Below are positions 10,399 to 11,043 of a stretch of DNA of 12,688 nucleotides, one piece after another. The notes beneath the pieces were generated by a model. The model was not told where the DNA came from and made no database searches. It saw nothing but the letters and a program-made list of their open reading frames with translations. Where the stretch lies: positions 1 through 12,688 of the IMG/VR virus record IMGVR_UViG_2734482785_000014; one strand, written 5' to 3'. A program made the position numbers and the translations under genes. Numbering within the stretch: the stretch's first letter is position 1; every line of letters begins with the position of its first letter. The stretch comes from a virus. Taxonomy: Duplodnaviria > Heunggongvirae > Uroviricota > Caudoviricetes.

Positions 10399-10567
10399 AC
10401 AGGAGCAAAACAGGCTGATACGTGGACTGATAAGGCAGCGTGACTTATGGAAGACACAGGAGACAGGGCACAAAGCCAACAGGACAGGGCGCACAGAACG
10501 CACCACAGCGAAGCAATTAACCGACCGTGACCGCGAGGTCATGGAATGTTTTCGCAATCGCTGGTGA
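10382..10567 (+). CDS. Possible small hydrophilic protein between HNH and small terminase (about 60 aa); may be spurious
   Basis: In-frame ATGs at 10382, 10388 and 10391 overlap the HNH 3' end; translation MAMMTEQEQNRLIRGLIRQRDLWKTQETGHKANRTGRTERT.... No convincing ribosome-binding site. Confidence 0.25.
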   Translation: MAMMTEQEQNRLIRGLIRQRDLWKTQETGHKANRTGRTERTTAKQLTDRDREVMECFRNRW

Positions 10568-10575
10568 GGCCGTCA

Positions 10576-10670
10576 GAGGGGGTGGGGGAGGTTTTCAGGA
10601 CAAAACCGTCCCTGCCGGACACCGACCGCCCCCTCAAATTTTTGTGCACGGGAATTTTTTTGAAAATAAT
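10576..10670. other. Candidate cos/packaging-site region upstream of the small terminase gene
   Basis: G-tract inverted repeat GAGGGGGTGG (10576-10585) and CCGCCCCCTC (10626-10635), a nested GGAC/GTCC dyad between them, then AT-rich A/T tracts (AAATTTTTG...GAATTTTTTTGAAAATAATT). Located where HK97-like phages place cos, just 5' of the small terminase gene. Confidence 0.3.
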
Positions 10671-10686
10671 TGGGCGAAAAAAGAAC

Positions 10687-11043
10687 ATGGCAAGACCACC
10701 AAAAGCCCCCGCTTACCTGGATGAAATCGCGGTAAAGCAGTGGAAGGAAAAATCGCGGCAGCTTTCCGGGCGGGAAGACCTTACCCCCGCCGACTGGAGC
10801 AATCTGGAACTGTATTGCGTTAACTACTCCATATACCGCAAAGCCGTCGAAGACCTTGCGACGCGCGGGTTCAGCATTGTTAACAGTCAGGGCAGCGAGA
10901 GCAGAAACCCGGCCCTGAGCGCAAAGGCTGACGCGGAAAGAATAATGATCAAAATGGCTTCTTTGCTGGGTTTTGACCCGGTAAGCCGTCGCAGAAATCC
11001 ACCGGAAACAGAGGAAGAGGATGAGCTTGACCGCCTGGCATGA
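10687..11043 (+). CDS. Terminase small subunit, P27 family (118 aa)
   Basis: MARPPKAPAYLDEIAVKQWKEKSRQLSGREDLTPADWSNLELYCVNYSIYRKAVEDLATRGFSIVNSQGSESRNPALSAKADAERIMIKMASLLGFDPVSRRRN matches the P27-type pattern (N-terminal RPPK, central SNPA, C-terminal GF-P-SR-R). The ORF-track start at 10546 has no ribosome-binding site. Confidence 0.8.
   Translation: MARPPKAPAYLDEIAVKQWKEKSRQLSGREDLTPADWSNLELYCVNYSIYRKAVEDLATRGFSIVNSQGSESRNPALSAKADAERIMIKMASLLGFDPVSRRRNPPETEEEDELDRLA

Follow-up and report, generated by a model that had tools for sequence, protein, structure and literature searches.

The segment at positions 10568-10686 of a 12,688-nucleotide (nt) stretch of viral DNA, IMG/VR record IMGVR_UViG_2734482785_000014 (the whole stretch is called the window here), is very probably the cohesive-end (cos) region of a capsid-forming phage-inducible chromosomal island (cf-PICI) with an HK97-type, HNH-dependent terminase. 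Judged by its gene content and order, the window is a cf-PICI of Escherichia coli. In an element of this kind a specialist would expect an HK97-type cos site here. The cf-PICIs make their own capsids and reportedly package only themselves, and in the searchable literature we found neither a mapped cf-PICI cos site nor a mapped cis-acting site for this exclusivity. An earlier note on this DNA had placed a candidate cos site just 5' of the small terminase gene terS. That placement is backed here by the gene context, by deep conservation, by two particle-derived assemblies with ends in this region and by the register of the cos site of phage HK97. The chances are about even that the cut itself lies within ~10 nt of position 10632. 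With a predicted block of 91 nt, a cut at about 10632/10633 and a site for the small terminase TerS at ~10645-10669, the question of exclusivity becomes directly testable, and the prediction provides a practical marker for cf-PICI termini in genomes and viromes.

A conserved block 5' of the small terminase gene

Relatives of the element were gathered through their TerS protein and not through a DNA motif, and the 26 most distant copies, ~71% identical over 750 nt, were compared with the window. Within the gap between a short open reading frame (ORF) of 60 amino acids (aa) and terS, these copies share a conserved block of 91 nt, 10579-10669, with three near-invariant sub-blocks: a G-tract, ACC..CCCCCTCAAATTTTT, and T7-GAAAATAA (Table 1). 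The conservation pattern is far beyond chance. In 199 of 212 copies the stretch from GGGGTGGGGG to GAAAATAA measures 91 nt. Because this noncoding DNA is conserved beyond the genes that flank it, and because its spacing is rigid, it has the likely look of a nucleoprotein assembly site. At least 120 IMG/VR contigs carry the 91-nt motif, as do representatives of 14 species, among them members of Pantoea, Kosakonia, Aeromonas, Xenorhabdus, Kluyvera, Enterobacter, Klebsiella, Rahnella, and Citrobacter. Pasteurella elements, with a TerS that is 61% identical, retain the layout of the block.

From left to right the window carries genes assigned by Pfam to capsid, protease, portal, connector and HNH, then the small ORF and the gap, and then the TerS and TerL genes, also assigned by Pfam. 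This order matches the published layout of proteobacterial cf-PICIs (preprint 10.1101/2022.09.08.507074). The large terminase TerL is 28% identical to HK97 gp2 (E 2e-49) and the HNH protein is 36% identical to HK97 gp74 (E 6e-17), so that an HK97-type TerL and a gp74-like HNH protein are encoded beside the putative cos site. The earlier note had described the genes as an HK97-like cos-packaging set, which is borne out for TerL and HNH. TerS is in another sequence family (Pfam Terminase_4) than HK97 gp1, with HK97 TerS as the closest match of its predicted fold. The HNH protein is predicted to be a trans-acting cofactor for cos cleavage.

Ends of particle-derived DNA and the register of HK97 and D3

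Two linear, particle-derived assemblies of related Klebsiella elements, independent of each other, break in this gap. The first, LR881103 (vB_KppS-Ant, L002), is a 16.5-kb linear record with the cf-PICI gene set. It was obtained from K. pneumoniae DSM 30104 by SPAdes assembly of a Nextera XT library, with >99% identity to the host chromosome (PMC8006926). Its authors described a filamentous single-stranded DNA prophage (PMC8006926), but the gene set is that of a cf-PICI. Both 500-nt ends of the record match the chromosome of strain ATCC 13883 exactly, and the intervening 69 chromosomal nt are absent. These 69 nt are equivalent to 10602-10670 of the window, the record ending at the equivalent of 10601. 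We take ATCC 13883 to be the same strain as DSM 30104. The latter is the strain used to study the cf-PICI KpCIDSM30104, the packaged DNA of which forms concatemers that have been attributed to cohesive cos ends (10.1101/2025.02.11.637232). Transposase (Nextera) libraries lose termini (PMC5557969).

The second assembly, PQ569648 (Klebsiella phage P12620-1, from hospital sewage in China; 106.5 kb), is chimeric, and its last 15.9 kb (L225, 90645-106503) are a different cf-PICI, ~88-89% identical. The cf-PICI sequence starts at the second base of terS and stops 20 nt short of the G-tract, with 134 nt missing. Both gaps contain the conserved block, and their intersection is 10602-10670 of the window. 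The interval between the HNH gene and terS is found at the ends of packaged DNA, these ends coming from relatives and not from this exact element. Other contig ends were uninformative: most of those in IMG/VR belong to prophage regions excised from isolate genomes, and one metagenome contig (L064), which starts 22 nt before the G-tract, says nothing about termini. The record of Acinetobacter phage AbIPP1 starts at the terS ATG through re-orientation, and its ends are silent on termini.

A profile of 104 columns was built from cf-PICI copies only, without HK97, and was scanned ungapped along both strands of the circularised HK97 genome. The experimentally defined HK97 cos junction was the best of 80,458 offsets, scoring -29.6 against -59.6 for the next best (mean -153.6, sd 21.1), which is a lead of 30 bits. 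Although the resemblance to HK97 had been spotted by eye before the scan, the ranking is objective. The cos ends are also the ends of the HK97 record, and the junction reads ...GGCAGGGGGGGGGATCAAATCTTCAAAACCTTTGCCCCAAATGACCGCCGCCAAA / GTTTGAATTTAACGCTAACCCGATTTTTTTAG..., with the terS ATG at +50. In this register -1/+1 of HK97 falls on 10632/10633 of the window, inside the second arm of an inverted repeat discussed below. The minimal site of HK97 TerS is +15..+29, with a required A-tract (PMC11331095). It maps to 10647-10661 of the window, CACGGGAATTTTTTT, where the T7 run is invariant. The A/T-rich block at 10636-10682, which holds the only T7 run on that side of the window, had been likened to bent DNA in the earlier note, and this fits well: it corresponds to the A-tract bound by HK97 TerS. 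The HK97 ends are 10-nt 3' overhangs (PMC11331095, PMC9410871; PhageTerm).

In HK97 and, relative to the predicted cut, in the window, the site lies between the HNH gene and terS; a C-rich CCGCC... ends at the cut, a G-tract precedes it by ~45-54 nt and a T7 run follows it at ~24-30 nt, and a single ungapped register holds throughout. The TerL and HNH proteins are homologous, and the predicted fold of TerS may also be shared. In HK97, with its 10-nt 3' overhang, cleavage is stimulated by the HNH protein gp74. The two differ in that the DNA is too diverged for local profile search, in that TerS of the window is in another sequence family (118 aa against 161 aa), and in that the window element, known here from its sequence, is a satellite of 15-16 kb without tail genes whereas HK97 is a 40-kb phage.

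The ends of phage D3 read ...AGGGGTGGGGCGGGTCAAAACC...GGACACCGCGCCCCCA / GGTC.... The D3 overhang is a 9-nt 3' overhang. With ~113,000 offsets scored over the two strands, the D3 junction ranks third on the plus strand and falls in the register seen for HK97. At its right end D3 has ...GGGGTGGGGCGGG...GGACACCGCGCCCCCA where the window has GGGGTGGGGGAGG...GGACACCGACCGCCCCC, with equal spacing and register, and in D3 also the HNH gene is at the right end and terS at the left. Unlike the window, D3 shows no more than a T5 run rightwards of its end, with neither a T7 block nor a GAAAATAA block. An upstream G-tract is present in both HK97 and D3, at a like distance from the physical end, and a role for it was not found described in the HK97 literature searched. 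The same qualitative layout is seen in an Acinetobacter phage and in the prophage that hosts relatives of the island.

Several observations count against this assignment, or against the precision of the cut. The D3 junction is not the top match, and with the left 70 columns alone it falls outside the four best plus-strand offsets. A local nhmmer search with the cf-PICI block misses the HK97 junction, so the relation to HK97 is one of architecture and register and not ordinary alignable homology. The profile also misses the HNH-terS gap of the prophage hosting the island's relatives, although the layout there looks similar by eye. Spacing can thus vary within this layout, and the predicted cut could be several nt off. 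TerS of the window has no detectable sequence similarity to HK97 gp1; for its AlphaFold2 model (pLDDT 72, moderate) the best Foldseek match is HK97 TerS bound to DNA, with E-values that are not significant. Likewise, the end positions are inferred from contig ends of relatives. Are these contig ends the physical ends of packaged DNA, or assembly breaks at runs of G/C and T? They could in principle be the latter.

With the HK97 register as a guide, the top strand is predicted to be cut at 10632/10633, roughly halfway along the 69 nt that LR881103 lacks, leaving a putative 3' cohesive end of 9-10 nt at ~10623-10632, CGACCGCCCC, which would overlap most of the second arm of the inverted repeat. 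After induction the island would be excised and then replicated into concatemers. TerS may bind the GCACGG-T7-GAAAATAA block at ~10645-10669, just to the right of the cut, and TerL with the HNH protein would introduce staggered nicks in the C-rich block, at ~10632/10633 on the top strand and ~9-10 nt further left on the bottom strand, leaving 3' cohesive ends of about CGACCGCCCC. Packaging would then proceed rightwards through terS, terL, the att junction, int, the replication genes, the head genes and HNH, and would stop at the next cos, with the G-tract block 10579-10601 as the last conserved element to enter the capsid. The G-tract block may have a role in termination or in positioning of the nuclease, as a cosQ-like or termination-side element.

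A wider reading is that one cos architecture in a single register is common to groups whose TerS proteins lack detectable sequence similarity: the cf-PICIs of Enterobacterales, Aeromonas and Pasteurella, HK97, D3, and the Acinetobacter phage. In the shared architecture the cut would have a G-tract ~45-54 bp on its left and an A/T-tract TerS site 15-30 bp on its right, and the 3' cohesive end would be C-rich. We advance this only tentatively, and think it somewhat more apt to be wrong than right. If it is true, the G-tract would be an uncharacterised upstream cos element, either cosQ-like or used to position HNH and TerL, and would be a general feature of HNH-dependent terminases. For thousands of such phages and satellites, the sequence alone could then suffice to predict the cos ends, and small differences within the blocks would set whether a satellite and its helper package each other's DNA.

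Table 1. Coordinates of genes and of predicted packaging elements in the window, with the identity to the window among the 26 relatives
Feature	Position	Strand	Basis or detail	Identity
BRO-N protein	55-639	+	gene call/Pfam	
DUF927 primase	3016-5139	+	Pfam	
Single-stranded DNA-binding protein (SSB)	5376-5801	+	Pfam	
HK97-fold major capsid protein	6666-7835	+	Pfam	
Prohead protease	7890-8450	+	Pfam	
Portal protein	8452-9666	+	Pfam	
Head-tail connector	9659-9958	+	Pfam	
HNH endonuclease gene	9958-10398	+	Pfam HNH E 8.8e-10; PHROG 144	71% (coding)
60-aa ORF, its stop codon the left bound of the cos region	10385-10567	+	PHROG 3173, E 2e-28	45%
Gap between 60-aa ORF stop and terS ATG	10567 to 10687			
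Inverted-repeat arm 1, GAGGGGGTGG	10576-10585		overlaps conserved G-tract	
Block A, putative upstream cos element, GGGGTGGGGGAGGTTTTCAGGAC	10579-10601	+	54 to 32 nt left of predicted cut; invariant columns in 26 copies	92% (10578-10601)
Spacer of variable sequence and fixed length	10602-10619		holds 3' arm of nested dyad and lineage-specific short dyads	56%
Block B, predicted cosN-like nicking region, CACCGACCGCCCC / CTCAAATTTTT	10620-10643	+	invariant ACC and TCAAATTTTT	88%
Inverted-repeat arm 2, CCGCCCCCTC	10626-10635		within block B	
Predicted cosB-like TerS-binding block, GTGCACGGGAATTTTTTTGAAAATAA	10644-10669	+	T7 and GAAAATAA 100% conserved	61% (10644-10654); 100% (10655-10669)
Non-conserved spacer before terS ATG	10670-10686	+	17 nt here, 24 nt in the Klebsiella element	27%
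terS, P27/Terminase_4 small terminase, 118 aa	10687-11043	+	Pfam	79% (coding)
terL, large terminase with ATPase and nuclease domains	11021-12688	+	Pfam TerL_ATPase, TerL_nuclease	

Inverted repeats and alternative explanations

The earlier note had drawn attention to G-tract inverted repeats in this gap and to a dyad nested between them. Both arms are present and are complementary at 9 of 10 positions, with 40 nt between them and 50 nt from start to start, but their symmetry is no rarer than chance and shows no covariation. An inverted repeat of equal quality is contained in 613 of 2000 dinucleotide shuffles of 10567-10690 (31%), and the whole window has 43 pairs of such quality, or 0.42 per 124 nt. 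Neither the RNA fold nor the DNA fold of the segment is unusually stable against shuffles (z -1.4 and -1.7, respectively), RNAalifold on the 26 diverse copies returns solely the stem of G-tract and C-tract with 0 compensatory pairs, and an Rfam search of the cos gap gave no family match. With shuffles, folding, covariation and Rfam all at background, the inverted repeat was rejected as a functional structure. The arms seem to be conserved elements in their own right, a G-tract upstream and a C-tract, and the C-tract arm is predicted to be the cohesive end itself. The nested dyad (10585-10595 / 10602-10612, 9 of 11 paired) also exists, but it is not conserved, its 3' arm lying inside the variable spacer.

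Short dyads are seen to the left of the predicted nicking region, at 10602-10623, in an alignment of 26 copies (A2), with a sequence that is specific to the lineage: GTCC-N5-GGAC in the window, and CCTC-N5-GAGG or GGTGC-CAG-GCACC elsewhere. They are weakly in excess, the mean best stem being 3.46 bp against 2.87 +/- 0.15 in shuffled sets, and none of 500 shuffle sets reaches this value; the copies are not independent.

Could the G-tract and C-tract instead form an RNA hairpin that, with the U-run after it, makes up an intrinsic terminator, or an attenuator, located between the head genes and terS-terL? The outer RNA stem pairs at 10 of 10 positions when G-U is allowed and is followed by AAAUUUUU, and C-to-T variants in the second arm preserve G-U pairing. 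Yet the absence of compensatory changes, a stability equal to that of shuffles and the lack of an Rfam match all speak against it, as does the terminator consensus scan, which made no call; the loop is 40 nt, and AAA separates the stem from the U-run. A hairpin would also leave the invariant T7-GAAAATAA block and the ends of particle DNA unexplained. We consider this explanation very unlikely, although it could coexist with a cos site. To a second role in expression, with the conserved A/T-rich block as a promoter, operator or translation-control region for terS-terL and not a packaging site, we give still less credence. The block is directly 5' of terS, as such a region would be, but the scan finds no sigma-70-like site on the + strand and the 17-24 nt adjoining the start codon are the least conserved part. 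In addition, the block is in register with the TerS-binding site of HK97, and the ends of particle DNA fall in its region.

Packaging sites close to TerS are typical of pac phages too, and the region might be a pac site for headful packaging with imprecise, permuted ends. This is highly improbable given that TerL is of the HK97 type, that two particle-derived contigs break at one and the same place, and that concatemers by cohesive ends are reported for a related cf-PICI (10.1101/2025.02.11.637232). Moreover, cos systems have been described as having an HNH gene beside the genes for terminase (PMC3592412; 10.1101/2022.09.08.507074). Finally, the gap might be coding. An ORF of 165 aa, 10546-11043, is open in the window and would give a longer TerS with an N-terminal extension, and many automatic gene calls of close relatives have 165 aa. 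However, distant clades have 117-118 aa and RefSeq has 118 aa, the distance from GAAAATAA to the ATG shifts by 7 nt between clades, which breaks the frame, and the conservation is block-like and without codon periodicity. A coding gap is scarcely credible, and the 165-aa call (start 10546, through the cos region) was set aside as a clade-specific annotation artefact, its frame not being conserved.

The element, other packaging systems and the integration site

Near-identical DNA was found in 163 of 5426 complete E. coli genomes and was chromosomal in every case. In these relatives an integrase and two helix-turn-helix regulators precede the DNA equivalent to the window, and the span from int to terL is ~15.3 kb, the integrase lying outside the window. 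The other components of a cf-PICI, which are integrase, regulators and replication genes within ~10-18 kb, are therefore accounted for by the DUF927 primase and SSB in the window and by int in the relatives. No tail or lysis genes were seen within the window.

The cf-PICIs EcCIEDL933 and KpCIDSM30104 have a gene set and order equal to those of the window, and the 91-nt block is present in the Klebsiella element and in a fragment from a phage propagated on E. coli ATCC 43895. The window represents another clade, which is ~71-76% identical to these elements around cos and has a DUF927 primase. Packaging by cf-PICIs has been described as exclusive to the island, and cohesive ends have been reported (10.1101/2022.09.08.507074, 10.1101/2025.02.11.637232).

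The cos site of lambda has the same three-part logic, with an element upstream, a site for nicking and, beside the small terminase gene, a block bound by TerS (cosQ-cosN-cosB). In lambda the terminase is gpNu1/gpA, and cos also holds R-site repeats and a site for integration host factor (IHF). Unlike the system predicted here, lambda has no HNH protein and a 12-nt 5' overhang, which is the opposite polarity. The terminase of the window is unrelated to gpNu1, the terminase families differ, and no repeated R-like sites were found in the window. A further likeness to lambda is the sequence TCAAATTTTTG at 10634-10644 (+), which matches the IHF core consensus TCAANNNNTTR and is nearly invariant across copies. 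Pasteurella copies have AATCAAATTTTTA, which fits the longer IHF consensus WATCAANNNNTTR. An IHF site was not accepted, as the window has 2 core matches against 4.2 expected, which is not significant alone.

In three relatives from pig, cattle and chicken isolates (L001, 1-17639; L221, 904-17642; L222, 674-17928) the island lies inside the large-terminase gene of an HK97-like prophage. Read from left to right, the prophage genes for HNH and a P27 TerS come first with the 5' part of terL, the island (int to terL) follows, and the 3' part of terL comes last with the portal, capsid and tail genes. Of the junctions between island and prophage, the left one is present in 36 complete E. coli genomes. 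An attachment site by which a satellite splits the terminase gene of a prophage is not mentioned in the searchable cf-PICI literature. The HNH-terS gap of the host prophage differs from that of the island in sequence and spacing, and the prophage TerS is 27% identical to the island TerS. As far as can be judged from the sequences, these differences would fit separate recognition by the island and the prophage, as reported for cf-PICIs.

The first bases of the 60-aa ORF lie within the end of the HNH gene, and its stop codon falls just 5' of the G-tract. In distant clades an ORF persists at this position despite a DNA identity of only 45%, and its C-terminal ...ECFRNR motif is conserved; the Acinetobacter phage likewise carries a small ORF there. 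A Pfam search with the 60-aa ORF gave no match and its RefSeq relatives are labelled hypothetical; it may be a packaging accessory. Elsewhere in the window, isrK (80 bits) and the C4 antisense RNA (75 bits) match above the Rfam gathering score at 1837-1913 and 1935-2022 (+), respectively. Both lie in an ORF-poor stretch, 640-2440, that is upstream of an Icd-like gene in relatives. This region is presumably an immunity-type small-RNA module like that of P1/P7, here carried on a satellite.

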